DNA of 64,000 nt. It comes from Candidatus Omnitrophota bacterium. Lineage in GTDB: Bacteria; Omnitrophota; Gorgyraeia; Zapsychrales; Zapsychraceae. Under the pieces are notes generated by a model. It made no database searches. It saw nothing but the letters and a program-made list of their open reading frames with translations, and was not told the origin of the DNA. Shown here one piece after another: positions 587 to 47,263 of the stretch (within the stretch, counting starts at the first letter, position 1; the number at the start of each line of letters is the position of its first letter). The translations under genes were made by a program, and so were the position numbers. The DNA lies in contig JAJDCA010000018.1 of NCBI GenBank assembly GCA_029261055.1, forward strand, positions 18,197-82,196, in the 5' to 3' direction.

Positions 587-587
587 A

Positions 588-1859: not shown

Positions 1860-1900
1860 GGATGCATTATAACGAAATTATTAATAATTAATAATATTAT

Positions 1901-19499: not shown

Positions 19500-19503
19500 T
19501 AAA

Positions 19504-23989: not shown

Positions 23990-24105
23990 GCAGCTAAAAC
24001 ATAAAATAGAAAAATTTCAGAAGCTGTTAGGATAGAACAAACTCGTGTTTAGCATCGGGGAATTTCATGCTACAGCCCTCTTCCTTCAATAGCATCTCTC
24101 CGCTC

Positions 24106-26655
24106 TCAATGATAATCTGCTTCCACCGGGTACCCCAGAGACTTAGCTTTTTGAAGATCGGCGAGGGCTTGTTTTTTGTGGCCTAAGATAGAATGAGTTA
24201 GGGAACGTTGGTAATAAATCTTTGAAAAATTTGGGTTAATCGATAAAGCTTTATTGTAATCCGCCAAGGCCAATCGATACTGTTTGCGTCGCATGTACAC
24301 GACGCCCCGGTTACTGTAGGTGCCGGTGTAATAGGGGTTAATTTTGAGCGCCCGATTAAAATCGACAAGCGCTAAATCTTCTTCCCCTTTAATGCCATAC
24401 ACAATGCCGCGATTATTGTACGCTTCGGCGTAATTAGGATGCACCGCAATGGCTTTAGTGTAATGGGTGATGGCCACATCATATTGTTCGACTTGCCTAA
24501 ATACATTGCCGATATTGTAATACGCCTCCGCAAAGTTTGGACTAATGGACAATGCCATTTGAAAATCATTTAAGGCTAACTGAAACTGACCTAATTTCTT
24601 GTACACAAGTCCGCGATTGCTGTAGGCCTTTACGTACCGTGGATTAAGCGCCAGGGCTTTGTTGTAATCCGCTAAAGCCAATTCATGACTCCCCTGCATT
24701 TCGTACAGGATGCCGCGGTTATTGTAAAGCCCGGCCTCCTTGGGAGCGATCGACAATCCTTTATTGTAATCAATCAAGGCTAAATCATATTTACGCTGTG
24801 TCCTGTAAATATTGCCCCGATTATTGTACAGCTGTATTTTGTGAGGATTAATTTCCAGGGCCTTATTAAAATCAGCCAGGGCTAAATCATATTTACGCTG
24901 TTTGTCATAAATCACACCGCGATTACCTAAAGCCGCCACAAATCCAGGATTAATTTCCAGGGCCTTATTGTAATCTGCAATCGCTAAATCCGGCATCCCC
25001 TTGGCGTCATAACACAGCGCGCGGGAATTGTACGCTTCCAGATAAGTCGAATTCATACGTAAGGCCTTGCTTAAATCTTTAATCGCCAAATCATATTGCC
25101 CTTTAACCTTGTACACTAGCCCGCGATTAATGTAACCTTCAATGTAATTCTTATTGTACTTAACGGCATTGTTGTAACTTTGAAACGCCAAATCATACAT
25201 CTCCGCCTGATAATAGGCATTACCCATATTATTGTGCGACCGCGGCTTTCGGGGAGATTTACTAATAATGTCTCTCCACAATTTTACGGGTGTTTCCCAA
25301 ATTTTATTGCGTTGGACCGTTAAGTACGACAAAGTAAGGAAAATAATACTCATAACCGTTAAGAATTTCTTAAAGTTTTTCATGAGGTGATGCAGACCAA
25401 CGGACACCGCCAGAGAAAAACCCACCATTGGAAGATACATTTTATGTTCAAAAATAATATGCCGCCGTGGTACAAAATTTGGCGACAGTGTGAGAAAAAA
25501 CCAAAATATTCCGAAAGCACTTAATCCATACAGTATCTTTTTTTCTCTTTGTGTTGCGATCTGCGCACGCGTTAAATGATATCCACTTTTCGGTTTACCT
25601 GATCGTGAAAAAAGGTTACCCACTACCGCCAGCTTGACAGCACCTAAGAAAATCGCCAACAATAGGCTAAAACTAAAAAACACCGCTGGCTCAAAAAAGC
25701 TCTTTGACAAAGCGTAATCGTAGTCGACATTTTGGCCAATGGGTAAAATACACAATTTCAAAAATGTCATCATCACCCTAAACTGCGTAATAAAATAATT
25801 TCCAAACGTAATCACATCACCGGCATGGGAAGCCGAATATTTTATGCCAAACAGTTGGCCCATAAAATTAAATGAAAATATGAACGGAATAATCGCCATA
25901 AAAATGACAATGGGACTAAAATACAACAACTTCATCATGCCACGTGCCGTCTTTTTATTTTTCTTAGGCTTTTGAAGAAAAGCCCATTCCACAAGGATAA
26001 TCGTCAATGGCAGCGTAATCACAATTTCCTTGGTAAACATGCCGAGAACAGCGGCAATGGCTGCACCGACAAAATACAATACTGACCACGGATCACTGAC
26101 CACTGACCACTTATTACGCCCCTTAATGTAAAGACACAGGGACAACAAATAAAACAAGGTCGCCAAAGACGCCATCCGCTGCGTAATGTACGTCACCGCC
26201 TGCGTCTGCGCCGGGTGACACACAAAAATTAACGCCGCACACAGCGCAACGATCGAACCGTGTACAAACCCCCGAGGTTTGTATGCGGTTTTGTACCGCA
26301 TACAAACCTCGGGGGTTTGTACACGGTTAAGACTCTCCACTAACATCCCCACCAACCACCACACCAACACGGCATTCATCAAATGAATCACCATATTCGT
26401 GACATGATATCCAAAAGTATCCAACTGATGGAAATGGTAATTGACAGCAAAAGAAAAGAATCCAATAAACCGTGATGGCTGACTCAACATATCCCACATC
26501 GGCTTAATATCCATCACATCTTTAATGGTAGGATTATTGATAATAAAAATAAAATCATCAAACTGAAAGGAATGATGGAAGGTCTGCGAATACACCGTAA
26601 GGCCTACGAGGCAAATGAGCAATACGGGCAAGAATCGTGATAATTTTTTAATCAT
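24106..26655 (-). CDS. Paralog 7: PMT/TMTC-like membrane domain + TPR repeats
   Basis: SFQFDD, SQPSRFIGFFSFAVNYHFH; TPR array. Confidence 0.6.
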   Translation of the reverse strand: MIKKLSRFLPVLLICLVGLTVYSQTFHHSFQFDDFIFIINNPTIKDVMDIKPMWDMLSQPSRFIGFFSFAVNYHFHQLDTFGYHVTNMVIHLMNAVLVWWLVGMLVESLNRVQTPEVCMRYKTAYKPRGFVHGSIVALCAALIFVCHPAQTQAVTYITQRMASLATLFYLLSLCLYIKGRNKWSVVSDPWSVLYFVGAAIAAVLGMFTKEIVITLPLTIILVEWAFLQKPKKNKKTARGMMKLLYFSPIVIFMAIIPFIFSFNFMGQLFGIKYSASHAGDVITFGNYFITQFRVMMTFLKLCILPIGQNVDYDYALSKSFFEPAVFFSFSLLLAIFLGAVKLAVVGNLFSRSGKPKSGYHLTRAQIATQREKKILYGLSAFGIFWFFLTLSPNFVPRRHIIFEHKMYLPMVGFSLAVSVGLHHLMKNFKKFLTVMSIIFLTLSYLTVQRNKIWETPVKLWRDIISKSPRKPRSHNNMGNAYYQAEMYDLAFQSYNNAVKYNKNYIEGYINRGLVYKVKGQYDLAIKDLSKALRMNSTYLEAYNSRALCYDAKGMPDLAIADYNKALEINPGFVAALGNRGVIYDKQRKYDLALADFNKALEINPHKIQLYNNRGNIYRTQRKYDLALIDYNKGLSIAPKEAGLYNNRGILYEMQGSHELALADYNKALALNPRYVKAYSNRGLVYKKLGQFQLALNDFQMALSISPNFAEAYYNIGNVFRQVEQYDVAITHYTKAIAVHPNYAEAYNNRGIVYGIKGEEDLALVDFNRALKINPYYTGTYSNRGVVYMRRKQYRLALADYNKALSINPNFSKIYYQRSLTHSILGHKKQALADLQKAKSLGYPVEADYH
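26082..26110. repeat. Direct repeat cactgacca x3, site 0 of paralog 7
   Basis: actgaccacggatcactgaccactgaccac; encodes WSVVSDPWSV. Confidence 0.55.
26258..26326. repeat. In-frame hairpin cassette, site 1 of paralog 7 (32-bp perfect stem)
   Basis: ccgtgtacaaacccccgaggtttgtatgcggt tttgt accgcatacaaacctcgggggtttgtacacgg. Confidence 0.85.
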
Positions 26656-26690
26656 GCTTTATACCAATTCCAATAAATAATTACCAAAAA

Positions 26691-26766
26691 TTACTCTCGG
26701 TTTTCTCGAACGCTTTTACGAAAGAGACAACTCTGGTAGGATTGTCTCCTAGAATGCCGAGAGTAA
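26691..26766. promoter_or_regulatory. Compound hairpin in the 121-bp spacer between paralogs 8 and 7
   Basis: Outer arms ttactctcgg / ccgagagtaa flank an inner hairpin gagacaactctggtaggattgtctc. Confidence 0.35.
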
Positions 26767-26776
26767 ATCAGAAAAA

Positions 26777-28585
26777 TTATTTGTTGGATTTGGTTTCACT
26801 AAATATACCATTATTTAATGGCTTTGGTATTAACTGCTTGAGCACAAGCTTCCGATTGTAATGGGCCGCTGAAAATTGTGGATCAATTTGAATCGCTTTA
26901 TCAAAATCCTGCAAAGCCTTTTCCGCCTGATTCTGCATAAAAAATACAACCCCTCGACTGACATATGCCTCGGTTAAATAAACATCTAATTCCAAAGCCT
27001 TATTTAAATCGAACAATGCTTTGCCGAGCTGCCCTTGATCTTTGTAAACAATACCCCGATTGGCATACCCTTGAGCATAACTGGGATTAAGTTTAAGACC
27101 ATTGGAGTAATACATCAATGCCTTATCATAGTCTTTTTTACGTGCATACACCTGCCCCAGACTTGTATGCGCTTTAAAATATTTTGGGTTCAATTTTAAG
27201 GATTGCGTAAAATACTCAATAGCGACATCGTCTTCTCCTTTAAGCATGTACGCATATCCCAAATTATGATGCGCTCTTGATTTGTGCGGTGACTTTTGGA
27301 TTACATCCGTCCACAAAGTAATATCGTCCTTCCAAACTTTATTACGTTGAATTGTTAAATAAGAAAATAAACCAAGAATAATCAACATCGTTACGATAAA
27401 TTGCTTTCGATTCTTGATTAAATGATGCAAACCTACACTTACGACAATAGCAAACCCGACCATCGCCAAATAAAGTTTATGTTCATAAATAATATGCCGC
27501 CGGGGAATTAAGTTTGGCGCGAGTGTCAGAAAAAACCAAAATAGGCCAAACGCCACAAGCGAATACCGCCGCCGTATCTTTACCGCCACACCCAATAGGA
27601 CTGCAAGCAGCGCAAAACTTAATAATGTCGCCCGTTCAAACAAACTCTGAGACAAAGCAAAATCATAATCAAAATTCTGTCCAATGGGAAATACGGCTAA
27701 TTTCAAAAACGTTACAAATACACGTGCTTGAGTGAAAAAATATTTCCCAAATGTAATCACCTCCCCTTCGTGCGAGGCCGATATTTTGGGCGCAAATAAT
27801 AAACCTGAAAAATTGAATGAAAACAGGGCGGGGATGATCAAACAGAACAGTAATAAAACCGTAAACGAACCTCGTAGGTTCGGATTTCCGAACCTACGAG
27901 GTTCGTTTACGGTTAACTCCACCAAAATAATAGCTAAAGGCAACGTGATCACAATTTCTTTCGTGAACATGCCGAGGACGGCAGCCAACGCAGCTCCAAA
28001 GAAATGTACAGACGCGATTAATCGCGTCTCTACTCCTCGCCCCTTAATGTAAAGACACACCGAAAGCAAATAAAACAACGTCGCCAACGACGCCATCCGC
28101 TGCGCAATGTACGTCACCGCCTGCGTCTGCACCGGGTGACACACAAAAATCAACGCAGCACACAAAGCGACCGTCGAACCATGTACAAACCCCCGAGGTT
28201 TGTATGCGGTTTTGTACCGCATACAAACCTCGGGGGTTTGTACACGGTTAAGACTCCTCACAATCATCCCCACCAACCACCACACGAGCAAGGCATTCAT
28301 CAAATGGATCACCAAATTCGTGACATGATACCCCAACACATCCAACTGATGAAAATGATAATTCACGGCAAACGAAAGGAATCCCACAAACCGTGACGGC
28401 TGGCTCAACATATCCCACATCAACCCCACACGCGACACATCCTTAATCGCTGGGTTATTCACAATAAATGCGTAATCATCAAAATGGAAAGAATGCTGGA
28501 AGGTTTGAGAATAGACAACAATGCCTAAGAGGAAAATACATAAAATAGAAAAAAATTTACTGACCTTAATAGAAAAGAATCTCAT
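26777..28585 (-). CDS. Paralog 8: PMT/TMTC-like membrane domain + short TPR array
   Basis: SFHFDD, SQPSRFVGFLSFAVNYHFH; 602 aa. Confidence 0.6.
   Translation of the reverse strand: MRFFSIKVSKFFSILCIFLLGIVVYSQTFQHSFHFDDYAFIVNNPAIKDVSRVGLMWDMLSQPSRFVGFLSFAVNYHFHQLDVLGYHVTNLVIHLMNALLVWWLVGMIVRSLNRVQTPEVCMRYKTAYKPRGFVHGSTVALCAALIFVCHPVQTQAVTYIAQRMASLATLFYLLSVCLYIKGRGVETRLIASVHFFGAALAAVLGMFTKEIVITLPLAIILVELTVNEPRRFGNPNLRGSFTVLLLFCLIIPALFSFNFSGLLFAPKISASHEGEVITFGKYFFTQARVFVTFLKLAVFPIGQNFDYDFALSQSLFERATLLSFALLAVLLGVAVKIRRRYSLVAFGLFWFFLTLAPNLIPRRHIIYEHKLYLAMVGFAIVVSVGLHHLIKNRKQFIVTMLIILGLFSYLTIQRNKVWKDDITLWTDVIQKSPHKSRAHHNLGYAYMLKGEDDVAIEYFTQSLKLNPKYFKAHTSLGQVYARKKDYDKALMYYSNGLKLNPSYAQGYANRGIVYKDQGQLGKALFDLNKALELDVYLTEAYVSRGVVFFMQNQAEKALQDFDKAIQIDPQFSAAHYNRKLVLKQLIPKPLNNGIFSETKSNK
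27857..27914. repeat. In-frame hairpin cassette, site 2 of paralog 8 (28-bp perfect stem)
   Basis: aaccgtaaacgaacctcgtaggttcgga tt tccgaacctacgaggttcgtttacggtt; encodes NEPRRFGNPNLRGSF. Confidence 0.85.
28010..28029. repeat. 20-bp perfect ATTAAT palindrome, site 0 of paralog 8
   Basis: agacgcgattaatcgcgtct; encodes ETRLIASV. Confidence 0.75.
28183..28243. repeat. In-frame hairpin cassette, site 1 of paralog 8 (same type as paralog 7)
   Basis: gtacaaacccccgaggtttgtatgcggt tttgt accgcatacaaacctcgggggtttgtac. Confidence 0.85.
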
Positions 28586-28688
28586 TGTTTAAAGTTTAGA
28601 GATTCTGCTTATGATGTCAAGAAGAAATACGGCCAGAACTCCCCGAAAGCCCTAAAATAAACGGCAGTTGCGTGATAGGCAAATAGAA

Positions 28689-30611
28689 TTAATTTTGTGC
28701 TGCCACCGCTTTTTCGCGATTATCTTTAGCTTCTTGATTGGTAGGGTCGATTTGCAGGGCTTTATCAAAATCTTCAATAGCTAAATCAAGGCGGCCGCTG
28801 AGGCCGTGGGTCGCGCCGCGGTTGTTGTACGCCTGCAGGTAATTCGGCTTAATGGCTAAAGCTTGCGTGTAATCTTTAATGGCTAAATCGTATTTTTCCT
28901 TTAATCTTAATGTGTTTGCTCTATTGTAATAAGCTTCAGCGTAGTTGGGCTTAATCCTGATGGCACGGCTAAAATCAGCAATGGCCAGATTGTGGCGCGC
29001 CTGCAATCCATACACAAAACCGCGGTTATTAAATGCCTCATAATAATCACGATTAATTGTCACCGCCTTTGTAAAATCCGTAACGGCTTGATCGTAATCA
29101 TGCAGCTGATGATGCACATTGCCTCTATTATTGTAGGCCTCAGAATATTCGGGGTTAATGATGAGCGCCTGATCCAAATAATGCTTCGCCTGGGCATAGG
29201 CCCCGCGACTTAAATACGCGCAACCCAAATTAAAATGCGGTCGCGCTTTTTGGGGCGACTTCGCTACGACATCTGCCCACAAGGCCACTGGATCAGCCCA
29301 AATTTTATTACGTTGCACCGTCAAATAGGCAAAGACGGCAATGATCACGCAACATACTGCTACGTACTTTTTAATATTCTTCATCACCGCAAAAAGCCCT
29401 GCGCTTAGCGCAATAGAAAACCCGACTAACGGCAAATAAAGTTTGTGCTCAAAAATAATATTACGCCGCGGAATAAAATTGGGTGTCAGTGTCAGAAGAA
29501 ACCAAAATAGGCCAAAAGCCACCAGAGGATGCCGTTTGCGTATTTTCCAGGCAGCCACCAGGAGGCTGAAAATCAGGACGATGCTCAACAGAACCGACCA
29601 TTCAAAAATACTTTGCGACAAAGCAAAATCATAATCCAAATTTTGCCCGATGGGAAAAAGCGTTAGGCGAATAAACGTCGCCAACACACGAAACTGCGTT
29701 AGGACGTAAGGCCAAAACGTAATCACATCCCCAACGTGCGACTCCGACATTTTTGCTCCAAATAATAATCCGGAAATATTAAAAGAAAATACGGCGGGAA
29801 TGATTAGACAAAACAACAGTAGACAAACCGTAAACGAACCTCGTAGGTTCGGAAATCCGAACCTACGAGGTTCGTTTAGGGTTAACTCCACCCAAATAAT
29901 AGTCAACGGCAACGTAATCACAATTTCTTTAGTAAACATACCCAGAATAGCGGCAACGGCAGCTCCAAGAAAATAAGGAATACGTCTCCAAGTTTTAGTC
30001 ATCCGTCGTTTGTCATCAGTCGCCAGTATTTTGGCTTTTTCTGAAAGCTGAAGACTGACGTCTGATAGCTGATGGCTAACACGTCCCTTCATGTAAAGAC
30101 ACACCACCAACAAATAAAACATCGTCGCCAAAGATGCAAATCGCTGCGTAATGTACGCTACGGCTTGAGTCTGTACAGGATGACACAAAAAAATCAACGC
30201 GGCAAACAACGCGACGGTCGAACCGTAAACACACCCCGGGGGTCTGTTTACGGTACAAGACCTCAAACAGACCCCCGGGGTGTGTTTACGGTTACTAGCC
30301 CCAACAAGCATCCCCCCCAACCACCAGACCAACAGAGCATTAATCACATGAATCACGACATTCGTCATATGGTACCCAAACACATCCAGCCCATGAAAAT
30401 AATAATTCAACGCAAACGAATAAAAGGCCACAAACCTCGACGGCTGCTCCAAATATGTCGCAATCGATTTGACATTCCCTAAACTCCGAATACTTTCATT
30501 AGTGACAATAAAAACTTGATCATCAAATTGGAAAGGCGCCTGCAATGTATTGGCATACATCCATCCCCCTATGATCACAATAAGGGCGATGGCTAAAAAT
30601 TTCTTAATCAT
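28689..30611 (-). CDS. Paralog 9: PMT/TMTC-like membrane domain + TPR repeats
   Basis: PFQFDD, EQPSRFVAFYSFALNYYFH. Start refined to MIKKF (ATG 30611), preceded by GGAGG. Confidence 0.6.
   Translation of the reverse strand: MIKKFLAIALIVIIGGWMYANTLQAPFQFDDQVFIVTNESIRSLGNVKSIATYLEQPSRFVAFYSFALNYYFHGLDVFGYHMTNVVIHVINALLVWWLGGMLVGASNRKHTPGVCLRSCTVNRPPGCVYGSTVALFAALIFLCHPVQTQAVAYITQRFASLATMFYLLVVCLYMKGRVSHQLSDVSLQLSEKAKILATDDKRRMTKTWRRIPYFLGAAVAAILGMFTKEIVITLPLTIIWVELTLNEPRRFGFPNLRGSFTVCLLLFCLIIPAVFSFNISGLLFGAKMSESHVGDVITFWPYVLTQFRVLATFIRLTLFPIGQNLDYDFALSQSIFEWSVLLSIVLIFSLLVAAWKIRKRHPLVAFGLFWFLLTLTPNFIPRRNIIFEHKLYLPLVGFSIALSAGLFAVMKNIKKYVAVCCVIIAVFAYLTVQRNKIWADPVALWADVVAKSPQKARPHFNLGCAYLSRGAYAQAKHYLDQALIINPEYSEAYNNRGNVHHQLHDYDQAVTDFTKAVTINRDYYEAFNNRGFVYGLQARHNLAIADFSRAIRIKPNYAEAYYNRANTLRLKEKYDLAIKDYTQALAIKPNYLQAYNNRGATHGLSGRLDLAIEDFDKALQIDPTNQEAKDNREKAVAAQN
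29826..29883. repeat. In-frame hairpin cassette, site 2 of paralog 9 (same type as paralog 8 site 2; 1 mismatch)
   Basis: aaccgtaaacgaacctcgtaggttcgga aa tccgaacctacgaggttcgtttagggtt. Confidence 0.8.
30005..30083. repeat. Heptamer ctgaNNN repeat / inverted-repeat cassette, site 0 of paralog 9
   Basis: ...tcatcagtcgccag tattttggcttttt ctgaaag ctgaaga ctgacgt ctgatag ctgatgg...; encodes SEKAKILATDDKRR. Confidence 0.55.
30223..30291. repeat. In-frame hairpin cassette, site 1 of paralog 9 (27-bp stem, loop acggtacaagacctc)
   Basis: ccgtaaacacaccccgggggtctgttt ... aaacagacccccggggtgtgtttacgg. Confidence 0.85.
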
Positions 30612-32631
30612 TCGGTAAAACCTCCATGGCCTTACGCACCCAAGCACGTTGTTGCTGAGCTTTAGCGTAACCGGGATCAATCGCTAAAGCACGGTTGTAA
30701 TCTTCCAAGGCCAAGGCGTATTGTTTTTGGTGTGCATAAATATTACCCCGGTTAAAATACGCTTCTTTAAAATTCAGATTAATCGCAATCGCCTTATTGT
30801 AATCCCACAAAGCTAAATCCTGCAACTGTTGCGCCGCAAAAATACCACCACGATTGCTGTAAGCTTGCGCGTTACGCGGATCTATTTTAATCGCAGCACC
30901 ATAATCTTTAAGGGCCTTTTCATATTGCCCTAAAGAAAAATACACATTCGCCCGGTTAACGTATCGACTGGCATTCGCCGGATTCAAAACAATCGCCGCA
31001 TCAAAATCGACCAAAGCCAAATCATATTTCTTTTGTATCTGATAAATGACCCCCCGGTTATTATGTGCAATAGCCGATTCCGAATCAATCAAAAGCGCCT
31101 GCGTAAAATCAGCCAAAGCTAAATCATAACGTCGTTCCATTTGATAAACAGATCCCCGATTATTGTAGGCCGACACATTATTGGGATTAAGCATCAAAGC
31201 TTGATTGAGATGCGTCAAAGCCAAACCCGTATCCCTCCTCTGCAAATAATACACCTTCCCTAAATTATTATGCGGCCGCGATTTGTGCGGCGACTTTTGT
31301 ACCACATCTTCCCACAACGTAATTTCATTGTTCCAAACTTTATTTCGCTGAAACGTCAAACACGAAAAAATAATAATCACACCAGACACAACGGAAACAA
31401 ACATTCTGGAATTTCTAATTAAAGAATACATCCCTGCTGTCAACGCCAAACACAGCCCAACGCTTGGCAAATACATGCGATGTTCAAATATGACATCCGC
31501 AATCGGAATAAAACTGGACTCCACCGACAGCGTAAGGAAAAACCAAATAATGCCTAGTGTCACAAGCTTATTACGTGTACGCATCCAAATCGCAAATCCA
31601 AATAACACAATACATGTCAGCATACTTAACAAAGTCGGCCATTCAAAAATACTGTACGCCAAAGGAAAGTCATAATCAAGATTCTGTCCAACTGGAAACA
31701 GGAATAATTTTAAATACGTTACCAGCACTTTAAACTGCGTCAAAAAGTACACCGATCGTGTCATTGTCGCCACGCCACTGGCTTCAGACATACTTTCCTG
31801 AGCCAACACTCCCGACAAATTAAACGAATACAAACAAGGAATAATTACAGCAAATGACAATATCAAAACAATGTAATACCATGGGACATCAATAATTCTT
31901 TTCGATCCTTCCCTCCTAAAAAAATAAAACTCCAACACAAGAATCATAAACGGCAGCGTAAACACAATTTCCTTACTGAACATACCCAGCACAGCCGCGA
32001 TCGCAGCTCCCACAAAACGTACAGACGCGATTAATCGCGTCTCTGCACATCGTCCTTTCATGTAAAGACACACCGAAAGCAAATAAAACATCGTTCCCAA
32101 CAGCGTAAACCGCTGCGCAATGTACGTCACCGCCTGCGTCTGCACGGGGTGACACAAAAAAATAAACGTTGCACACAGAGCGACGGTCGAACCGTAAACA
32201 CACCTCGGGGGTGTGTTTTTGATTTTTCGCCGTAAACACACCCCCGAGGTGTGTTTACGGTTAATGCTCCGAACACCCATCCCCACCAACCACCACACAA
32301 GCAAAGCATTAATCACATGAATCCCCACATTCACCACATGATACCCAAACACATCCAACTTATGAAAATGGTAATTCACCGCAAAACTCAAATACGGAAT
32401 CAAGCGTCGCGCCGACACCCCGAGTGTATGATCCATCAAATGCTTCGTCGTATTGGTCCATGCAATTGCAATATTAAAAACATCCCTGATCTGCGGATTT
32501 TCCACAATGACACGCGTATCATCAAAATGGAAAGAACTATGAAAAGTGTTAGCGTAAATAGCTCCGCCTAAAATACAAATAATGAATACAAAAAATAATT
32601 TGTTAATTCTCATATTTAAATATTTAATCAT
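30604..32631 (-). CDS. Paralog 10: PMT/TMTC-like membrane domain + TPR repeats (divergent N-terminal motif SFHFDDTRVIVENPQIRD)
   Basis: Same architecture; shares long near-identical stretches with paralog 11 (SVESSFIPIADVIFEHRMYLPSVGLCLA). Start uncertain: 32631, 32613 or 32685. Confidence 0.55.
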   Translation of the reverse strand: MIKYLNMRINKLFFVFIICILGGAIYANTFHSSFHFDDTRVIVENPQIRDVFNIAIAWTNTTKHLMDHTLGVSARRLIPYLSFAVNYHFHKLDVFGYHVVNVGIHVINALLVWWLVGMGVRSINRKHTSGVCLRRKIKNTPPRCVYGSTVALCATFIFLCHPVQTQAVTYIAQRFTLLGTMFYLLSVCLYMKGRCAETRLIASVRFVGAAIAAVLGMFSKEIVFTLPFMILVLEFYFFRREGSKRIIDVPWYYIVLILSFAVIIPCLYSFNLSGVLAQESMSEASGVATMTRSVYFLTQFKVLVTYLKLFLFPVGQNLDYDFPLAYSIFEWPTLLSMLTCIVLFGFAIWMRTRNKLVTLGIIWFFLTLSVESSFIPIADVIFEHRMYLPSVGLCLALTAGMYSLIRNSRMFVSVVSGVIIIFSCLTFQRNKVWNNEITLWEDVVQKSPHKSRPHNNLGKVYYLQRRDTGLALTHLNQALMLNPNNVSAYNNRGSVYQMERRYDLALADFTQALLIDSESAIAHNNRGVIYQIQKKYDLALVDFDAAIVLNPANASRYVNRANVYFSLGQYEKALKDYGAAIKIDPRNAQAYSNRGGIFAAQQLQDLALWDYNKAIAINLNFKEAYFNRGNIYAHQKQYALALEDYNRALAIDPGYAKAQQQRAWVRKAMEVLPND
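32023..32042. repeat. 20-bp perfect ATTAAT palindrome, site 0 of paralog 10
   Basis: agacgcgattaatcgcgtct. Confidence 0.75.
32192..32260. repeat. In-frame hairpin cassette, site 1 of paralog 10 (27-bp perfect stem)
   Basis: ccgtaaacacacctcgggggtgtgttt / 15-nt loop / aaacacacccccgaggtgtgtttacgg. Confidence 0.85.
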
Positions 32632-34516
32632 ATCCACCCATACAATCTGCGTACATACTTTCAAGCATTTTACCCTTACGATCAATCTCTTTGACTTTAA
32701 CAGTGTTACCCAACGCTTGACAAGTATTCACAAGATGAAGATAAGATTTCTTGAAATCAGGATTTATTTTTAAAGCCTTTTTGTAATATTTCATTGCCAA
32801 TGCATGTTGATGTTTGGCGCCATAAATTAACCCAATATTATCGTAAGTCGTCGTCAAATTGGGATTTAACTTAACCGCCATTTCGTAATCAGCCAAGGCT
32901 TTGTCATACTGCTGCGTAAGATGATATGCCGTCCCTCGATTATTGTACGTTACGGCAGATGTTGGGTTTAAAACCAATGCCCGATCATAATCTCTAATGG
33001 CCAAACCATACCTCCCCTTTTTCTCAAAAAAATGCCCTCTATTGGTGTATGCTTTAACATGGTAAGGATCAATATGTAAGGCCTTATTGAAATGCGCTAG
33101 TGCTAAATCATATTTACTTTCTTTCAAATACGCGGCCCCTAAAATACCGTGACCTCTTGCTTTATTTGGCGATTTTTTCACCACATCTTCCCACAACGTC
33201 ATTTCATTGTTCCAAACTTTGTTTCGCTGAAACGTTAAATAAGAAAAAACAATCACAATCACACACGCAACCGTTACAAGCGCTCTGGAATTTTTTATGA
33301 AAACTAACAGCCCAGCTGTAAACGCCAAACACAGCCCAACGCTTGGCAAATACATGCGATGTTCAAATATGACATCCGCGATCGGAATAAAACTGGACTC
33401 CACCGACAACGTCAGAAAAAACCAAATAATGCCCAACGAAACAAGGCGATGACGTGAAAACAATTTTACGGCTGCACCTAACAATACAACGCACATCATC
33501 ATACTCAAAAAAGTCGACCATTCAAAAATACTTTGCGCCAAAGGAAAATCATAATCAAGATTTTGCCCGACTGGAAACAGGAATAACTTTAAATAAGCCA
33601 ACACCACTTTAAACTGCGTCAAAAAATAAACCGACCGCGTCATCGCCGCCACGCCACTGGATTCAGACACACTTTCCTGAGCCAACACTCCCGACAAATT
33701 AAACGAATACAAACAAGGAACAATTACAGCAAATGACAATATCAAAACAATGTAATACCACGGAACATCAATAATTCTTTTCGATCCTTCCTTTCTAAAA
33801 AAATAAAACTCCAACACAAGAATCATAAACGGCAGCGTAAACACAATTTCCTTACTGAACATACCCAGCACAGCCGCGACAGCAGCCCCCACAAAACGTA
33901 CAGACGCGATTAATCGCGTCTCTGCACATCGTCCTTTCATGTAAAGACACACCGAAAGCAAATAAAACATCGCCCCCAACAACGTAAACCGCTGCGCAAT
34001 GTACGTCACCGCCTGCGTCTGCAGAGGATGACACAGAAAAATCAAGGCTGCACACAAAGCGACTGTCGAACCGTAAACGAACCTCGGGGGTTCGGATTTC
34101 GGGAATTCAGATTTCCGAACCCCCGAGGTTCGTTTACGGTTAAAAATCTTCACCACCATCCCCACCAACCACCACACAAGCAAAGCATTCACCACATGAA
34201 TCCCTACATTCACCACATGATACCCAAACACATCCAACTTATGAAAATGGTAATTCACCGCAAACGTCAAAAACGGAATAAGCCGTCGTGCAGACAACCC
34301 CTGCGTATGCTCAAGCAAATGCTTGGTGGTATCCATCCACACAACCTTAATATTTTGAATATTTCTAATCTGCGGATTCTCCACAATGACACGCGTGTCG
34401 TCAAAATGAAAAGTGCTGTGGAAGGTGTTGGCGTAAATAATAATGCCGAGGCAAACAAGAAAAATAGCAGGAAAAAACTTTTTAATCCCCTGACATAATG
34501 TTAGATGGACTTTCAT
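32624..34516 (-). CDS. Paralog 11: PMT/TMTC-like membrane domain + TPR repeats
   Basis: TFHFDDTRVIVENPQIRN; close duplicate of paralog 10 in the membrane domain. Start uncertain: 34516, 34555 or 34576. Confidence 0.55.
   Translation of the reverse strand: MKVHLTLCQGIKKFFPAIFLVCLGIIIYANTFHSTFHFDDTRVIVENPQIRNIQNIKVVWMDTTKHLLEHTQGLSARRLIPFLTFAVNYHFHKLDVFGYHVVNVGIHVVNALLVWWLVGMVVKIFNRKRTSGVRKSEFPKSEPPRFVYGSTVALCAALIFLCHPLQTQAVTYIAQRFTLLGAMFYLLSVCLYMKGRCAETRLIASVRFVGAAVAAVLGMFSKEIVFTLPFMILVLEFYFFRKEGSKRIIDVPWYYIVLILSFAVIVPCLYSFNLSGVLAQESVSESSGVAAMTRSVYFLTQFKVVLAYLKLFLFPVGQNLDYDFPLAQSIFEWSTFLSMMMCVVLLGAAVKLFSRHRLVSLGIIWFFLTLSVESSFIPIADVIFEHRMYLPSVGLCLAFTAGLLVFIKNSRALVTVACVIVIVFSYLTFQRNKVWNNEMTLWEDVVKKSPNKARGHGILGAAYLKESKYDLALAHFNKALHIDPYHVKAYTNRGHFFEKKGRYGLAIRDYDRALVLNPTSAVTYNNRGTAYHLTQQYDKALADYEMAVKLNPNLTTTYDNIGLIYGAKHQHALAMKYYKKALKINPDFKKSYLHLVNTCQALGNTVKVKEIDRKGKMLESMYADCMGGYD
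33902..33921. repeat. 20-bp perfect ATTAAT palindrome, site 0 of paralog 11
   Basis: agacgcgattaatcgcgtct. Confidence 0.75.
34069..34141. repeat. In-frame hairpin cassette with internal partial duplication, site 1 of paralog 11
   Basis: aaccgtaaacgaacctcgggggttcgga tttcgggaattcagattt tccgaacccccgaggttcgtttacggtt; encodes KSEFPKSEPP (duplicated KSEP). Confidence 0.8.
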
Positions 34517-36935
34517 TATTGATTTGATATCCCAAAGATTGCGCCTTAAAAGCATTTTGCTGGGCCTGGGAAGCATTCCCCATTGCTTTGTAAATTAAGG
34601 CACGCTGGTAATAGGCCCCAGCATATTTCGGATTGATCGTTAAAACTTTACCATAATCAGCCAAGGCAAGACGGTATTTTTTCAACTGAGTGTACACAAC
34701 GGCACGGTTGTAATACGCCTCCCAAAAATCCGGATTAATTTTAATCGCTTTATGAAAATCTTTCAAGGCCGCAGCATGCTGCTTCAAGGCCAACTGAACC
34801 AATCCTCTATTATTGTACGCTCTCAAATACGATGAATTAATTTTAATAGCCTGGCTGTAATTTTCCAAAGCCGCGGCGTAATCTTTTTTTAATGTGTACA
34901 CAAGCCCACGATTACTCAAAAATTCTTCCTTTTTATTAGGAGACTGCCTTAATGCCTGGGTGTAATCAACCAAAGCTAAATCATATTGCCCTTGCGCTTT
35001 GTACATATTGCCCCGGTTACTGTAAAACTGGGGCATGTCCGGATTAATCGTAATCGCCTGCTTAAAATCCGCCGTCGCCAAATCATATTGACGTTTAACT
35101 TTGCGAATAATCCCGCGATTACTGTACGCCGACGCTAACAAAGGATCATTTTTAATCGCTTTATTGTAATCACTCAACGCCTGATCATACCGCCTTTGAT
35201 CCTTGTAAAAATTCCCGCGATTATTGTACGACTCAGCATTGTTGGGATCCAATTGAATACTTTGATTAAAATCTGCCAAAGCCAAATCATGCAGCCCCTT
35301 CTTTTGATACACAACGCCACGATTGTCATACCCTTTAACATTGCCAGCATCCATTTCAATGGACTTCGTCAAATATTCAAGAGCCAAATCATATTCACCT
35401 CTGGCAAAATAGGAATATCCTAAATTAAGATACGGCCGCATCTTACCGGGAGATTTCCGAACAACATCACTCCACAAAGAAACTGCATTTTGCCACACCC
35501 TGTTTCTTTGAATCGTTAAAGAAGAATAGACACTCAAAATAATCAACATGCTAACCACACATTTCTTTTTATTATTAAAACTTAAATACAATAAACACGG
35601 TAATATCATACAAAACCCGATGGATGCTAAATACAATTTATGCTCAAAAATAATATGCCGCCTTGGCACCAAATTGGCTGCCATCGTCAGGAAAAACCAA
35701 AATATCCCAAAAGAAATCACCGCATGCCGATGCCTTAATCTCATTGCTAACATTACCAACCCCGTCAAAAAAACAAAACTCAACACAACCGGCCATTCAA
35801 AGATTCCTTGCGACAATGGAAAATCATAATCAAGATTTTGCCCGATGGGAAAAACCAATAAACGAATAAAAACCACAAAAACACGTGCTTGCGTTAAAAA
35901 ATATTTCCCAAACGTAATCACATCCCCCGCATGCGACGCCGACATCTTTGGCCCGAACAATATCCCGAAAACATTAAACGAAAAAACGGCGGGGATGATC
36001 AAACAAAACAATAATAAAAATACCCAACCGTAAACCGTAAACACACCCCGGGGGTCTGTTTGAGGTCTTGTACCGTAAACAGACCCCCGGGGTGTGTTTA
36101 CGGTTCCAGTCGATCGCAAAAACATAAACTCAACAAGTAAAATCATCAAAGGCAACGTAATCACAATTTCTTTGGTGAACATCCCAAGGACAGCAGCCAC
36201 CGCAGCTCCGAAGAAATAAAAAATGGGCCGCCAATTCTTAGACGTCAGTCGTCTGCTATCAGCTGTCAGTATTTTGTTTTTTTCTGAAGACTGATGACTG
36301 ATGGCTGATGACTGATAGCTAATACGTCCCTTTATGTAAAAACACAACGAAAGTAAATAAAACAATGTCGCCAAAGACGCAAACCGCTGACTAATGTACG
36401 TCACCGCCTGAGTCTGAACAGGATGGGCCACAAAAAGCAATGCGGCAAACAAACCGTAAACGAACCCAGAAAGTTTGCGTTCGCAAACTCTCACGGTTCG
36501 TTTACGGTTAAAAGTCTTCACCAACATCCCCACCAACCACCACACCAACAAAGAATTAACCACATGAATCACAAGATTCGTCACATGATACCCAAAAACA
36601 TTTAACCCATGAAAATGATAATTTAACGCAAAGGTGAGAAAAGCGACATAACGTGAAGGCTGGCCGAGAATACTGCCAAACGTAGTAATATTTTTGAAAT
36701 CTTTAATGTAAGAATTACCAGCAACAAATTTTACATCATCAAATTGAAAAGGACTGTGGAGGGTATTTGCATAAAGGGCAACACCAAGAAGGCCTATGAC
36801 AAAAAAATAGTGACAGAAACCGTTTTTTAAAAAACCTTCACTTATTTTCTTAAAAAAGGGTCTGTCACTATTTTTTTGGCTGAACAATTTTTTGGGCCAA
36901 TCTCTTAATTCAAATAATTTTTTAACTCTGTCCAA
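34482..36935 (-). CDS. Paralog 12: PMT/TMTC-like membrane domain + TPR repeats
   Basis: PFQFDD, GQPSRYVAFLTFALNYHFH; about 12 TPR units; long N-terminal extension. Confidence 0.6.
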   Translation of the reverse strand: MDRVKKLFELRDWPKKLFSQKNSDRPFFKKISEGFLKNGFCHYFFVIGLLGVALYANTLHSPFQFDDVKFVAGNSYIKDFKNITTFGSILGQPSRYVAFLTFALNYHFHGLNVFGYHVTNLVIHVVNSLLVWWLVGMLVKTFNRKRTVRVCERKLSGFVYGLFAALLFVAHPVQTQAVTYISQRFASLATLFYLLSLCFYIKGRISYQSSAISHQSSEKNKILTADSRRLTSKNWRPIFYFFGAAVAAVLGMFTKEIVITLPLMILLVEFMFLRSTGTVNTPRGSVYGTRPQTDPRGVFTVYGWVFLLLFCLIIPAVFSFNVFGILFGPKMSASHAGDVITFGKYFLTQARVFVVFIRLLVFPIGQNLDYDFPLSQGIFEWPVVLSFVFLTGLVMLAMRLRHRHAVISFGIFWFFLTMAANLVPRRHIIFEHKLYLASIGFCMILPCLLYLSFNNKKKCVVSMLIILSVYSSLTIQRNRVWQNAVSLWSDVVRKSPGKMRPYLNLGYSYFARGEYDLALEYLTKSIEMDAGNVKGYDNRGVVYQKKGLHDLALADFNQSIQLDPNNAESYNNRGNFYKDQRRYDQALSDYNKAIKNDPLLASAYSNRGIIRKVKRQYDLATADFKQAITINPDMPQFYSNRGNMYKAQGQYDLALVDYTQALRQSPNKKEEFLSNRGLVYTLKKDYAAALENYSQAIKINSSYLRAYNNRGLVQLALKQHAAALKDFHKAIKINPDFWEAYYNRAVVYTQLKKYRLALADYGKVLTINPKYAGAYYQRALIYKAMGNASQAQQNAFKAQSLGYQINNESPSNIMSGD
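36035..36103. repeat. In-frame hairpin cassette, site 2 of paralog 12 (the paralog 9 site-1 element in inverted orientation)
   Basis: ccgtaaacacaccccgggggtctgttt gaggtcttgtaccgt aaacagacccccggggtgtgtttacgg; the loop is the reverse complement of the loop at 30250..30264. Confidence 0.85.
36241..36325. repeat. Heptamer ctgaNNN repeat with inverted copy, site 0 of paralog 12
   Basis: gtcagtcgtctgctatcagctgtcag tattttgttttttt ctgaaga ctgatga ctgatgg ctgatga ctgatag; encodes SEKNKILTADSRRL. Confidence 0.6.
36452..36509. repeat. Nested-palindrome cassette, site 1 of paralog 12
   Basis: aaccgtaaacgaacc cagaaagtttgcgttcgcaaactctca cggttcgtttacggtt. Confidence 0.75.
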
Positions 36936-37402
36936 GTTTTTTTGCCAATAATACCATCGGCCTTAAGTTCATGCTCTTTCTGAAATTTCTTAATAGCTCC
37001 ACGGGATTTACTCCCAAGTTTACCATCAATTGACCCCTCATAATACCCAGCATTTTTCAAAGCCGCCTGAACTTTTTTGGCACTCACAGCCACGCGAATA
37101 ATACGCAAACCATCTTTTTGGGCTTGTAATTTCGAAGGAGTCATTTTTAATCCTCTCCCTTCATAACTAGCCTCTTCAATCGGCTCAATAATCGGACCTG
37201 AATCCATACCTTCCACCTGACCAGCCAATTCCCGGACTTCATATCTCAATTCTTCAATCACCCGATCACGTTCGTCCACCTTCCGTTCTAACTGAGCAAC
37301 CTTAACCTGTACATTATTTGGTCCTACAGGCGGCATTGCTGTTGAACACCCCGCCGCTAATACCCCTACAATCATAACTCCGAATAATAATTTCCACTTC
37401 AT
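36905..37402 (-). CDS. Lipoprotein with coiled-coil and C-terminal peptidoglycan-binding (PG_binding_1-like) domain
   Basis: Signal and lipobox LAAGC; C-terminus GYYEGSIDGKLGSKSRGAIKKFQKEHELKADGIIGKKTW. Start ATG 37402 is preceded by an AAGGAG RBS. Confidence 0.6.
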   Translation of the reverse strand: MKWKLLFGVMIVGVLAAGCSTAMPPVGPNNVQVKVAQLERKVDERDRVIEELRYEVRELAGQVEGMDSGPIIEPIEEASYEGRGLKMTPSKLQAQKDGLRIIRVAVSAKKVQAALKNAGYYEGSIDGKLGSKSRGAIKKFQKEHELKADGIIGKKTWTELKNYLN

Positions 37403-37463
37403 ATCATTTCTCCTTTTTGTTTTCATTAATCTGAGGCGTATTTTTGGTGCCGACAGGAAAGGT

Positions 37464-39278: not shown

Positions 39279-39283
39279 AACGA

Positions 39284-39360
39284 CCCCTTAATGGGCATGA
39301 TAAATCATGCCCCTACAAACGACACTCCTCGTACGGGCATGATTTATCATGCCCCTAAAA
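39284..39360. repeat. Two intergenic REP-like hairpins (gggcatgat NN atcatgccc) between GH15 and the BatC-like gene
   Basis: ccccttaatGGGCATGATaaATCATGCCCctac ... cgtacGGGCATGATttATCATGCCCctaaaa. Confidence 0.75.
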
Positions 39361-41378: not shown

Positions 41379-41396
41379 AATTTAAAAACCATTAAC

Positions 41397-41442
41397 GCAC
41401 CTCGTAGGTGTAATCGCACCTACGAGGTGCGTTTATTTACGG
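41397..41442. terminator. Intergenic hairpin between the two vWA genes (17-bp perfect stem)
   Basis: aacgcacctcgtaggtg taatcg cacctacgaggtgcgtt followed by tatttacgg; shares the CCTCGTAGG core with the site-2 cassettes. Confidence 0.4.
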
Positions 41443-43102: not shown

Positions 43103-43109
43103 AAATAGT

Positions 43110-43169
43110 CGCTCGTCGCGCGTGTCGCGTGACTCGTTTTTTACGAGCCACGCGTCACGAGCGACGAGC
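43110..43169. repeat. Imperfect GC-rich hairpin (gtcgcgtgactcg...acgagccacgcg family) in the DUF58-DUF4381 spacer
   Basis: gctcgtcgcgcgtgtcgcgtgactcgt ttttttt acgagccacgcgtcacgagcgacgagc; a related motif (tgtgtcgcgtcacgcgcgacgagcc) sits at 6444..6468 in the fabG-acpP spacer. Confidence 0.5.
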
Positions 43170-46161: not shown

Positions 46162-46183
46162 AATTACTCCTCCTTTAAAATAA

Positions 46184-46212
46184 CTGTACGGGCGGTTCGC
46201 GAACCGCCCCTA
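46184..46212. repeat. REP-like GC-core hairpin between the moxR start and the upstream gene stop
   Basis: gtacgggcggttcgcgaaccgcccctac; a sister of the copy at 52722. Confidence 0.7.
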
Positions 46213-46224
46213 CTCCAATTTTTT

Positions 46225-47235: not shown

Positions 47236-47263
47236 AAAAAGTACGTACGCGCGTACGTACTTT
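47236..47263. repeat. 28-bp perfect palindrome between the SNase-fusion gene and the MNT gene
   Basis: aaaagtacgtacgcgcgtacgtactttt. Confidence 0.7.

Follow-up and report, generated by a model that had tools for sequence, protein, structure and literature searches.

The 64-kb window, by which we mean the whole stretch of DNA analysed, carries on its minus strand an array of 12 tandem paralogs (p1 to p12; 9858..36935). Two of these ORFs are p10 (30604..32685, minus strand) and p11 (32624..34576, minus strand), the latter being the sister of p10 across most of the membrane domain. The p10 product has an N-terminal multi-helix membrane domain and C-terminal TPR repeats, which gave its only Pfam matches. 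The probable start codon of p10 is the ATG at 32631, leading to a 675-aa form to which the protein P0001 is 100% identical.

When both genes were compared, a gapless nucleotide alignment of 1,111 nt was obtained, in which the offset was 1,879 nt throughout and 151 positions differed, and both SVESSFIPIADVIFEHRMYLPSVGLCLA and VFTLPFMILVLEFYFFR were found in the two translations. In the tracts 32284-32400 and 31811-32140, only 17 of 447 positions differed (3.8%). The second of these tracts (minus strand; counterpart 33690-34019 in p11) showed 11/327 differences and a dS of 0.098, contained two exact runs of 85 nt, the longest shared by both genes, and included a perfect 20-nt palindrome, AGACGCGATTAATCGCGTCT, at site 0 (32023..32042; encoding ETRLIAS). 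Identical copies of this palindrome were found in p11 (33902-33921) and at 28010-28029, and a search allowing up to 3 mismatches revealed six matches against 0 expected, with variants at 18942, 18795 (at another site, in p4) and 16391 (split by a nested hairpin). Along the membrane domain p10 and p11 were each other's nearest neighbours except near site 1. Nevertheless, the near-identity over this domain claimed in the original prediction is true of blocks only: the first ~100 codons were 60-80% identical and three divergent islands interrupt the blocks. The TPR halves showed ~50% nucleotide identity.

Island A (32141..32283 in p10, minus strand; 34020-34162 in p11) accumulated 41/143 differences against the background of 17/447. 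Island B (31541..31630, minus strand) showed 32/87 differences with a dS of 2.0, and island C (31361..31450, minus strand) 26/87, with a dS of 0.41 and a dN of 0.37. Despite a divergence similar to that of island A, islands B and C contained no palindromes; no close donor for island B was detected within the window, and likewise no donor was found for island C. Between blocks of this gene pair, dS spans from 0.09 to 2.5.

The palindromic element at site 1 of p10 (32190..32262, minus strand; inverted repeat I9) has 73 nt, with 29-nt arms 100% complementary, a 15-nt spacer, ACACC-type sub-hairpins and the core ACACCTCGGGGGTGTG. That of p11 (34069..34141, minus strand; inverted repeat I12) is also 73 nt long, with 28-nt arms 100% complementary and the core GAACCTCGGGGGTTCGGA, and corresponds to a 58-nt GAACC type plus a central 15-nt duplication. 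They encode NRKHTSGVCLRRKIKNTPPRCVYG and NRKRTSGVRKSEFPKSEPPRFVYG, and their predicted folds reach -54.5 kcal/mol (z -9.65, as RNA) and -56.1 kcal/mol (z -9.08), respectively. The shared runs, the identical site-0 palindromes and the differing site-1 cores quoted in the original prediction were therefore all found in place.

Both elements differ at 24/73 positions (Poisson P about 5e-15 vs the 17/447 of the tracts), so that uniform divergence across flanks and cassettes was absent. The arms of p11 match those of p10 at only 22/28 positions but coincide fully with the p2 and p6 arms (28/28), whereas the p10 arms are closest to those of p1, p4 and p9 (26/28), no donor for the p10 cassette being found above 26/28 per arm. 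If both cassettes had descended vertically from that of the p10/p11 ancestor, changing faster than their flanks through compensatory changes, their common length of 73 nt and the identity of the outer 10 nt on each side would be accounted for, and templated repair in palindromes can fix paired changes. However, only 2.8 differences would be expected from the flanking tracts, those found are coordinated at four symmetric positions in such a way that the p2/p6 arm is exactly recreated, and the adjoining non-element codons also show strong synonymous divergence, the 5' flank of the p11 element matching that of p12 in 19/21 positions. Vertical co-divergence, against which the original prediction had argued, is thus largely refuted by the neighbour switching at site 1, the dS mosaic and the arm and flank matches to other paralogs, and we consider it very improbable.

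The decoupling of cassette identity from the flanks, as proposed originally, was also apparent over all 66 paralog pairs, for which flank and cassette identity were weakly correlated (Spearman 0.35). Flank identity peaks in the p10-p11 pair (0.90), whose cassettes are 0.72 identical, and the reverse was found for p2-p6 (flanks 0.67, cassettes 0.95). In contrast, the abrupt identity breakpoints anticipated at the cassette borders were not detected between p10 and p11. Beyond the element itself, island A takes in ordinary coding sequence on both sides, 21 nt at the 5' side and 49 nt at the 3' side, and these 70 non-element bases hold 17 differences (P about 4e-9), with a dS of 2.5 in the 5' flank and 0.87 in the 3' flank compared to 0.09 in the adjacent tracts. 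Therefore, the unit exchanged between p10 and p11 looks like a recombination tract including the cassette, not the cassette alone.

As the window derives from a MAG contig, a chimeric assembly of near-identical tandem paralogs could in principle mimic such a mosaic, and independent Logan contigs from the same run do break at the array, one (L001) ending inside the p12 site-2 element at 36077 and another (L004) stopping before the array. Against this, the longest exact p10/p11 run (85 nt) is below the usual read size, all 12 genes remain in frame through all elements, L001 matches 36077-39318 with 0 mismatches, including the p12 site-1 element, and related elements are present at the same sites in two independent assemblies (L125 and L127). 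An artefact is consequently a far-fetched explanation.

Regarding anatomy, the elements consist of two inverted small hairpins (stem NNACC, loop TCGGG or CCCGA, stem GGTN'N') flanked by the conserved termini AACCGTAAAC...GTTTACGGTT, and the whole unit can also fold as a single hairpin of 28-35 bp. Allowing one mismatch, CCTCGGGGG occurred 32 times (4.9 expected) and AACCGTAAAC 29 times (5.6 expected), counts that were not equalled by any shuffle. Among 15 elements, arm complementarity was 86-100%, each arm being a hairpin in itself, and the predicted folds ranged from -50 to -65 kcal/mol (z about -9 to -12.5). Although 13 of the 28 arm positions vary among copies, perfect 28-nt arms were kept in 9/15. 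Most copies show the configuration TCGGG...CCCGA, and p7 and p8 the opposite one (CCCGA...TCGGG). The reading frame is AAC CGT AAA at site 1 and A ACC GTA AAC at site 2. No Rfam family matched the element.

Site 1 was occupied in all 12 array members, in order at 11612-11684, 14241-14298, 16579-16648, 19109-19181, 21645-21702, 23581-23638, 26256-26328, 28177-28249, 30221-30293, 32190-32262, 34069-34141 and 36452-36509, the last of these, in p12, being degenerate (arms 89% complementary). At site 2, a doublet was found in 3/12 paralogs and a single hairpin in a fourth. The 58-nt element of p8 (27857..27914, minus strand) encodes TVNEPRRFGNPNLRGSFTV and folds at -50.4 kcal/mol (z -11.9); its p9 counterpart (29826-29883) has the centre flipped. 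The p12 site-2 element (36033..36105, minus strand), followed by a 7-nt TACGGTT duplication, encodes TVNTPRGSVYGTRPQTDPRGVFTV in a frame different from that of p9 site 1. It is the exact reverse complement of the p9 site-1 element (30221..30293, minus strand), matching it at 73/73 positions in reverse orientation and 66/73 in forward orientation. Hybrid arms were seen in p2 and p6, which match best in reverse orientation (55/58), and a 6-nt change with respect to p6 makes the p5 palindrome perfect. Of 16 family copies in the window, 15 lie inside the array, and none was found in the 6.8 kb beyond the window start. An intergenic relative of GCACC/TCGTA type (41391..41436; -32.8 kcal/mol, z -8.3) is located directly 3' of the stop codon of a BatA-like gene (41437..42489). 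A second dimer, of GTAG type, lies in an unrelated ORF (56234-56296).

The exact p9/p12 match shows that, in other parts of the array, elements do travel as separate units, while the tract exchanged between p10 and p11 appears to exceed the cassette. Active transposition would explain the site-1 differences by excision and re-insertion, or by independent insertions into a preferred target, of non-autonomous units that depend on a tyrosine (HUH) transposase acting in trans, a scheme put forward for REPINs and RAYTs. The recurrence of one 73-nt element in a second paralog, where site, frame and orientation all differ, the presence of a site-2 element in some paralogs and its absence from others, the opposite orientations at one site in p2 and p6, and the intergenic copies just 3' of stop codons (41391-41436, and 739-807 of L002, from another Omnitrophota MAG) are in agreement with this, as is the absence of target-site duplications, predicted by IS200/IS605-type chemistry. 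Yet no transposase domain was detected among the ORFs of the window, the copies cluster in one gene family and the elements appear to substitute for loop residues rather than being added to them. Moreover, the p10/p11 divergence extends 21 nt and ~49 nt past the element with high dS, which precise element replacement would not produce. Transposition is hence an unlikely source of the differing site-1 cassettes.

At the protein level, the AlphaFold model of p10 had a mean pLDDT of 90.8, and its sole long segment with pLDDT below 50 (residues 128-145) is the element peptide, suggesting that the element encodes a disordered surface loop. A site-1 element was also found in a dispersed 13th paralog of the same sample (L127), and the syntenic homolog of a related genome (L125) has elements at both site 1 and site 2. 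More distant homologs have no element at site 1, where there is an unrelated loop of ~24 aa, which makes the element lineage-specific.

This general occupancy of site 1, in 12/12 array members, the dispersed paralog and the related homolog, could alternatively mean that the hairpin is a selected cis-element with an RNA- or DNA-level role, such as a processing site for RNase III or another enzyme, a stability element in a 27-kb polycistronic transcript or a hotspot for loop-diversifying recombination, cassette types varying because structure alone is constrained. Strong arm covariation, very stable predicted hairpins and retention in the related paralog, ~51-57% identical although the adjoining GH15 is 87% identical, are compatible with such a role. 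Nonetheless, selfish REPINs typically also show covarying arms and spacers that vary without disrupting the hairpin (PMC3337134), the degenerate p12 copy is tolerated, site 2 is filled only in some paralogs and no Rfam family was matched. Furthermore, identity of the p11 arms with those of p2 and p6 implies copying and not independent compensatory change. We therefore regard a selected cis-element as improbable, even if a dispersed selfish repeat would not usually have 15/16 of its copies in one array, a pattern that could reflect selection.

The explanation that we consider probable, though by no means certain, invokes mosaic gene conversion, acting both between paralogs and between palindrome copies, the cassettes being REP-dimer/REPIN-like selfish palindromic repeats, presumably without host function, in frame in permissive disordered loops. 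A site-1 copy would already have been present in the ancestor of the paralog clade, and later shuffling would have occurred by non-reciprocal homologous recombination between paralogs and between element copies, aided by the strong conservation of coding flanks and element termini. Since a near-perfect palindrome retains homology to itself when inverted, copies could be converted in either orientation. Arm complementarity would probably be kept by hairpin-templated repair, and purifying selection would eliminate any copy that, through its length or frame, disrupts the ORF. In p10 and p11, most of the membrane domain would have been homogenised recently (dS about 0.09), whereas the ~143-nt cassette-containing tract would have a separate ancestry, p11 resembling p12, p2 and p6, and p10 resembling p1, p4, p9 and p8, which results in near-identical flanks with different cassettes. 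Conversion of an allelic style is not sufficient for the whole array, as the new site-2 occupancy and the 73/73 p9/p12 copy require real insertion or ectopic copying.

The elements belong to a known kind, that of REP dimers or REPINs, akin to Rickettsia palindromic elements. As in REPINs, REP doublets that form hairpins (Bertels and Rainey, 2011; PMC3116915, PMC3337134), two short imperfect palindromes are inverted around a spacer variable in length and sequence, the whole unit gives one long, nearly perfect hairpin that is retained, and both doublet configurations occur (PMC3337134). In contrast to REPINs, of about 89-110 nt, the elements described here have 58-73 nt, 15/16 of the window copies are intragenic and in frame, clustering in a single paralog family, the 64 kb showed no RAYT, and hybrid arms exist (p2, p6), unlike in SBW25, for which hybrid REPINs were not reported. 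Intragenic GTAG/CGTC-tagged REP dimers, including RPE-4 and RPE-6 of Rickettsia conorii and the GTAG dimers of Opitutus terrae (Di Nocera et al., 2013; PMC3733652), share the stem-loop units with a 5-nt loop, a stem of ~8-9 bp and an adjoining CGTA or CGTC motif. In-frame dimers encoding 20-30 aa are known within ORFs of both organisms, some genes having two insertions, and CGTC-type repeats also have no known dedicated transposase (PMC3733652). However, in the present elements CGTN is at the outer ends, a tail-to-tail-like arrangement that is rare for CGTC families, and is often base-paired rather than unpaired, the CCA tail is absent, the host is an Omnitrophota-like genome and one loop site is filled throughout a 12-gene array. 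With Rickettsia palindromic elements of the RPE-1 type (Ogata et al., 2000, as reviewed in PMC10969869) they share being selfish palindromic repeats in frame in coding genes, whose translation adds a surface segment that the fold can accommodate, but RPE-1 measures about 100-150 bp and occurs in many unrelated genes, whereas our elements are half that size and confined, within the window, to one gene family. Unlike pilE/pilS or vlsE, there is no arrangement of expression site and silent cassettes, all copies being full-length ORFs in one co-oriented array for which the direction of transfer is not definable. Finally, mosaic synonymous divergence, neighbour switching and short tracts common to non-sister copies are shared with paralog gene conversion, a process proposed long ago for REP evolution (Higgins et al., 1988, cited in PMC3337134).

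The minus strand of 9858..36935 encodes twelve paralogs (p1 to p12) in the same orientation and almost abutting, each with C-terminal TPR repeats and an N-terminal multi-helix membrane domain. Each of the 12 is a full-length ORF with a start codon, and no truncated cassettes were found among them. When a paralog was searched against Pfam, NCBIfam, PDB sequences and Foldseek, matches were confined to the TPR half, with none for the membrane domain. Homologs are numerous in Omnitrophota and Latescibacterota MAGs, usually under the name "tetratricopeptide repeat protein", and a few JGI homolog records are named protein O-mannosyl-transferase. The first loop has an invariant DD motif, which presumably resembles that of PMT/TMTC-like GT-C glycosyltransferases.

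The paralogs carry palindromic inserts at two loop positions, sites 1 and 2. Inserts at site 1 measure 58, 70 or 73 nt and have termini that are conserved (AACCGTAAAC...GTTTACGGTT). The arms are themselves small hairpins (NNACC, loop TCGGG or CCCGA, GGTN'N'; for example AAACAGACC-TCGGG-GGTCTGTTT, whose reverse complement sits in the partner arm), and an element therefore consists of two such units in inverted orientation and a spacer of 0-17 nt. Stems are of 9 bp in p1, 8 bp in p4-p8, 6-7 bp in p2, p3, p11 and the site-2 copies and 13 bp in p10, and loops are of 5 nt (TCGGG or CCCGA), or of 3 nt in the CCCCGGGGG type. The motif preceding each unit is CGTA in most copies, CGTC in p5 and p6 and CGTG in p7 and p8, and this CGTN tag lies inside a 13-bp stem in several copies, such as p10. 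Folding of whole elements as RNA gave minimum free energies of -50 to -65 kcal/mol (z -9 to -12.5), not matched by any shuffle, and the two cassette motifs were counted 32 and 29 times in the window, against 4.9 and 5.6 expected from shuffles. Across 15 copies 13 of the 28 arm positions are variable, and in nine copies the 28-nt arms are perfectly complementary. Rfam at its gathering threshold gave no match in the window.

The order of the loops is TCGGG...CCCGA in most copies and reversed in p7 and p8. An inversion of the element in these two paralogs was considered and rejected, as inverting a perfect palindrome leaves its reading unchanged; the difference lies in the orientation of both sub-hairpin loops and therefore corresponds to the other doublet configuration. 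Target-site duplications were sought around the elements and none was found, with no direct repeat flanking them consistently. One-sided duplications of an element end were detected in p5 (ACGGTT, 21696-21708) and p12 site 2 (TACGGTT, 36026-36039) alone, both of which maintain or restore the frame.

All copies are translated in frame as peptides of 19-24 aa, and every element length is 1 mod 3. At site 1 the frame is AAC CGT AAA..., giving NRKxTSGV...PPRFVYGS, whereas at site 2 the same type of element is read one base later (TVNEPRRFG...LRGSFTV); the third frame of GTAAAC-type copies, read directly from the sequence, opens with a TAA stop. In an AlphaFold model of p10 (64-sequence alignment, mean pLDDT 90.8), the sole long low-confidence segment, residues 128-145, is the element peptide, flanked by two confident helices. 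In homologs elsewhere this position is taken by a loop of some 24 unrelated residues (TPRLK..IS.HK); most of the ancestral loop has therefore been replaced by the element, not extended by it. Three homologs from other Omnitrophota (P0040, P0067 and P0049) bear different GC-rich REP-like peptides at this loop (e.g. VGAVREPPL, VRGPVPRPPSEGGWGQPPL), which suggests from sequence that it may accept unrelated repeat families in other lineages.

Other inserts were also observed in the paralogs. One of about 95 nt, in frame and present only in p2, p9 and p12 (14005-14100, 29982-30080 and 36225-36323), consists of heptamer repeats that contain ATCAG and have an inverted counterpart (...CATCAGTCATCAG...CTGACAGCTGATAG...); its translation is HQ.S..S.Q.SEK.KIL..D. 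In addition, p7 has a unique 31-residue insertion (AVVGNLFSRSGKPKSGYHLTRAQIATQREKK, 25525-25635) with no obvious palindrome. In p3 (16388-16438) a nested 21-nt hairpin splits the palindrome of site 0, AGACGCG[CCTGCCTGCCGGCAAGGCAGG]ATTAATCGCGTCT, adding LPAGKAG in frame, so that a small palindrome is inserted within another. Two loops of p4 hold a 20-nt palindrome of the GCGATTAATCGC type, 18795-18814 (site 2) and 18942-18961 (site 0), and therefore this second small palindrome family is also multi-site; P0011 (locus L126), a homolog found in this sample, has a degenerate version with the same ETRLIAS peptide.

The relationship between elements and flanks was analysed in p10 (30604..32685) and p11 (32624..34576), for which the original prediction described near-identical membrane domains with different cassettes and proposed cassette exchange. 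Two peptides described as common to both are indeed present in both translations, the 20-nt site-0 palindrome AGACGCGATTAATCGCGTCT stands unchanged at both 32023 and 33902, and the site-1 inserts (32190-32262 and 34069-34141) are perfect inverted repeats whose cores differ as described. The two genes align without gaps over 1,111 nt at an offset of 1,879, with 151 differences that are strongly clustered. Three divergent islands were detected (p10 coordinates): island A, which holds the site-1 element (32141-32283, 41/143 differences), island B (31541-31630, 32/87) and island C (31361-31450, 26/87), whereas the near-identical tracts 32284-32400 and 31811-32140 differ at only 17 of 447 positions. 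In these adjacent tracts synonymous divergence was 0.09, compared to 0.9-2.5 in the parts of island A that flank the element, 2.0 for island B and about 0.4 for several other blocks.

In a nearest-neighbour scan, p10 and p11 were mutually closest over the membrane domain except around site 1. The site-1 arms of p11 are identical to those of p2 and p6 (28/28) and those of p10 match p1, p4 and p9 at 26/28, compared to 22/28 between p10 and p11. The 21-nt 5' flank of p11 matches p12 at 19/21 and p10 at 13/21, and in the 48-nt 3' flank p10 and p11 are each closer to p8 (41/48) than to one another (39/48). Among the 66 paralog pairs, flank and cassette identities were weakly correlated (rho 0.35), with outliers both ways (0.90/0.72 for p10-p11, 0.67/0.95 for p2-p6). 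The neighbour switch, the arm and flank matches and the block-wise synonymous divergence therefore refute vertical co-divergence and show that the decoupling of cassette from flanks is real. As to exchange of the cassette itself, this decoupling stands, but the differing tract is of about 143 nt, larger than the cassette, and the abrupt identity breaks expected at the cassette borders are absent: the tract overruns them, and both genes have the same outermost 10 nt in each arm. Islands B and C have no palindrome, so mosaicism does not need one.

A mosaic of this kind could be produced by mis-assembly of the array. However, the longest exact run common to p10 and p11 is of 85 nt, every copy is in frame, and an independent Logan assembly (SRR15505515) reproduces 36077..39318 and 1..3636 with 0 mismatches, which makes this explanation unlikely.

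An element is present at site 1 of all 12 array members, of a dispersed 13th paralog (L127) and of the syntenic homolog in a related genome (L125). In L127, from the same sample as the window and here a 90%-identity cluster member standing in for P0121, site 1 has three hairpin units. In L125 both sites hold perfect palindromes of the same family with slightly different termini; the neighbouring GH15 is 87% identical to that of the window and the paralog only 51-57%, and therefore occupancy of site 1 is old. In a comparison of L125 with 34482..39278 of the window, the PG-binding proteins are 57% identical and the first array paralog shares only about 51% identity with the gene at the corresponding position, the low paralog values indicating that the array probably turns over or reshuffles fast.

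The p9 site-1 element (30221-30293) is identical at 73/73 positions to the reverse complement of p12 site 2 (36033-36105), despite the different site, frame and orientation. The best match between the p2 and p6 elements is reverse-oriented (55/58), with hybrid arms in both, and at site 2 the copies of p8 and p9 differ in that the centre is flipped. Only p8, p9 and p12 have a doublet at site 2, where p1 has a single hairpin. Judged by their sequences, the elements have clearly been copied around among loci. Transposition by a RAYT-like enzyme may account for this copying, but no transposase (Y1/HUH) domain was found in any ORF of the window.

Fifteen of the 16 window copies are intragenic, within a single gene family, and an intergenic relative (41391-41436) lies directly after a stop codon; another was found in an Omnitrophota MAG (L002). 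A scan of GTDB-representative contigs with AACCGTAAACNNACCNCGGGGGT, among which the source genome is not included, gave only one Omnitrophota MAG copy at an unrelated locus and one probable chance match. A metagenome contig scan with ACCTCGGGGGTN{14,44}ACCCCCGAGGT gave at least 120 loci, mostly on soil contigs of 65% GC; among the matches listed, most were a different head-to-head AAAACGACCTCGGGGGTCGTTTT-type dimer and none lay within homologs of p1-p12. The tip motif is therefore widespread, though direct relatives were not found among the matches listed. Dimers with the GACC-TCGGG-GGTC tip were very common at these loci (L005-L124, at least 120, on soil or rhizosphere contigs of about 65% GC), typically, among the matches listed, as a terminator-like head-to-head AAAACGACCTCGGGGGTCGTTTTACG-N5-CGTAAAACGACCCCCGAGGTCGTTTT with central CGTA. 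The concatenated element peptides gave no scoring match in a set of 5.8 billion proteins, the segments being too short.

The whole pattern is best accounted for by gene conversion among the tandem paralogs and among the palindrome copies. The strongly conserved coding flanks and element termini would seed conversion, which would be independent of orientation since a palindrome can pair with itself in both directions. Repair of one arm templated by the other would maintain a perfect hairpin, and a 6-nt change between p5 and p6, which brings the right arm of p5 into match with its left arm, is exactly what hairpin-templated correction would yield. Purifying selection would keep the frame, and the site-2 copies would require occasional true insertion or ectopic copying. 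We infer the direction and timing of individual conversion events.

A selected RNA or DNA function of the elements is possible but not needed for this account. In one reading, the site-1 hairpin would be a maintained cis-element and not a mere tolerated parasite, making the loop a recombination hotspot: palindrome-guided, orientation-independent conversion would continually reshuffle the peptide cassette and adjacent codons across 13 or more paralogs of a membrane enzyme that modifies the surface, as a built-in diversification device. As a variant, the hairpin would punctuate a polycistronic mRNA of 27 kb and signal its processing or stability. Site 1 is filled in every paralog and in the related genome though the genes turn over fast, and the arms change in sequence while their complementarity stays perfect, both of which are compatible with a maintained cis-element, a reading that we consider very improbable.

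Palindromic repeats were also detected outside the array. A different, GTAG-type GC-rich REP dimer (ACGTAGGGGCGGGCCCCCGTGCCCGCCC...GGGCAGCCACAGGGGGCTGCCCCTACGT, 56234-56296) lies in frame within ORF 53745..56963 (minus strand), an unrelated protein of 1,072 aa with no Pfam match, where it encodes NVGAGPRARPVKGQPQGAAPTY; in-frame palindromic repeats here therefore go beyond the paralog family. ORFs 48020..51277 and 60561..63914, like 53745..56963 of about 1,100 aa, also had no Pfam match at E <= 1e-5. Intergenic palindromes lie at 39288-39359, 46177-46222, 52719-52738, 43108-43169 and 47237-47264; three resemble GTAG-tagged REPs (GTAGGGGCATGAT...ATCATGCCC, GTAGGGGCGGTTCGCGAACCGCCCGTAC and GGGCGGCTCGCGAGCCGCCC), and the others are a repeat with 27-nt arms after gene 43174..44067 and a perfect 28-nt palindrome, AAAAGTACGTACGCGCGTACGTACTTTT. 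Gene 44064..45146, for a PDDEXK nuclease of the YhcG type (DUF1016_N plus YhcG_C), lies inside a Bat/MoxR-DUF58-VWA aerotolerance-like operon and holds a perfect pair of 23-nt inverted repeats (44766-44788 and 44841-44863), and a second ORF with DUF1016_N alone (46225..47229) adjoins the MoxR gene.

These data do not reveal a new biological system. The elements come from a little-studied phylum, and one loop is occupied in every member of a large array, an unusually informative configuration. In-frame REP dimers are already on record (PMC3733652, PMC10969869), and the earlier cases of in-frame REP-dimer or REPIN-like elements, mainly from Rickettsia, Opitutus and a few proteobacteria, are now extended to an Omnitrophota-like lineage among the uncultured candidate phyla. 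The array is an unusually clean natural experiment, with one kind of palindrome in the same loop of twelve tandem paralogs, so that a single contig can be used directly to follow persistence, arm-to-arm correction, orientation flips, hybrid arms and the copying of elements to further sites. In annotation, the elements explain odd low-complexity loops (NRKxTSGV...PPRFVYGS, TVNEPRRFG...) and mirror-image ORFs on the opposite strand, and caution is required as short-read assemblies break at such arrays.

Among known systems, REP dimers and REPINs vary in their spacers without loss of the hairpin and occur in both configurations of the doublet (PMC3337134). The elements resemble REPINs in the inverted sub-hairpins of both arms and in the folding of the whole doublet into one long near-perfect hairpin. 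However, REPINs are high-copy, dispersed and mostly extragenic, unlike the 15 of 16 window copies inside genes of one family, and have a cognate single-copy RAYT flanked by REPs. No Y1/HUH domain was found in the ORFs of the window, and the elements are therefore not demonstrably REPINs. CGTC-tagged REPs have an unpaired terminal CGTC (or TGTC, CCTC) tag, a stem of 8-9 bp starting with A/T pairs, a loop of 4-5 nt and a 3-bp CCA tail, form mainly head-to-head dimers, and encode 20-30 aa when the dimers are intragenic (Di Nocera 2013, Table 1; PMC3733652). The present elements are likewise in-frame intragenic dimers, of 19-24 aa, but they have no CCA tail and their tags are at the outer ends of the dimer and often paired, and therefore they are not typical CGTC REPs. 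With RPEs they share an in-frame, translated palindromic repeat at a fold-compatible position, here a predicted loop between helices, although RPE-1, of about 100-150 bp, is roughly twice their size (58-73 nt) and occurs in many unrelated Rickettsia genes instead of one gene family of an Omnitrophota-like genome. MITEs have terminal inverted repeats and a target-site duplication, whereas here a single inverted repeat makes up the entire element, and silent-cassette systems of antigenic or phase variation rely on promoterless partial donors and one expressed gene, in contrast to the 12 full-length ORFs found here. Membership of any of these classes is not established; the elements behave like REPINs or REP dimers and, in their translation, like RPEs.
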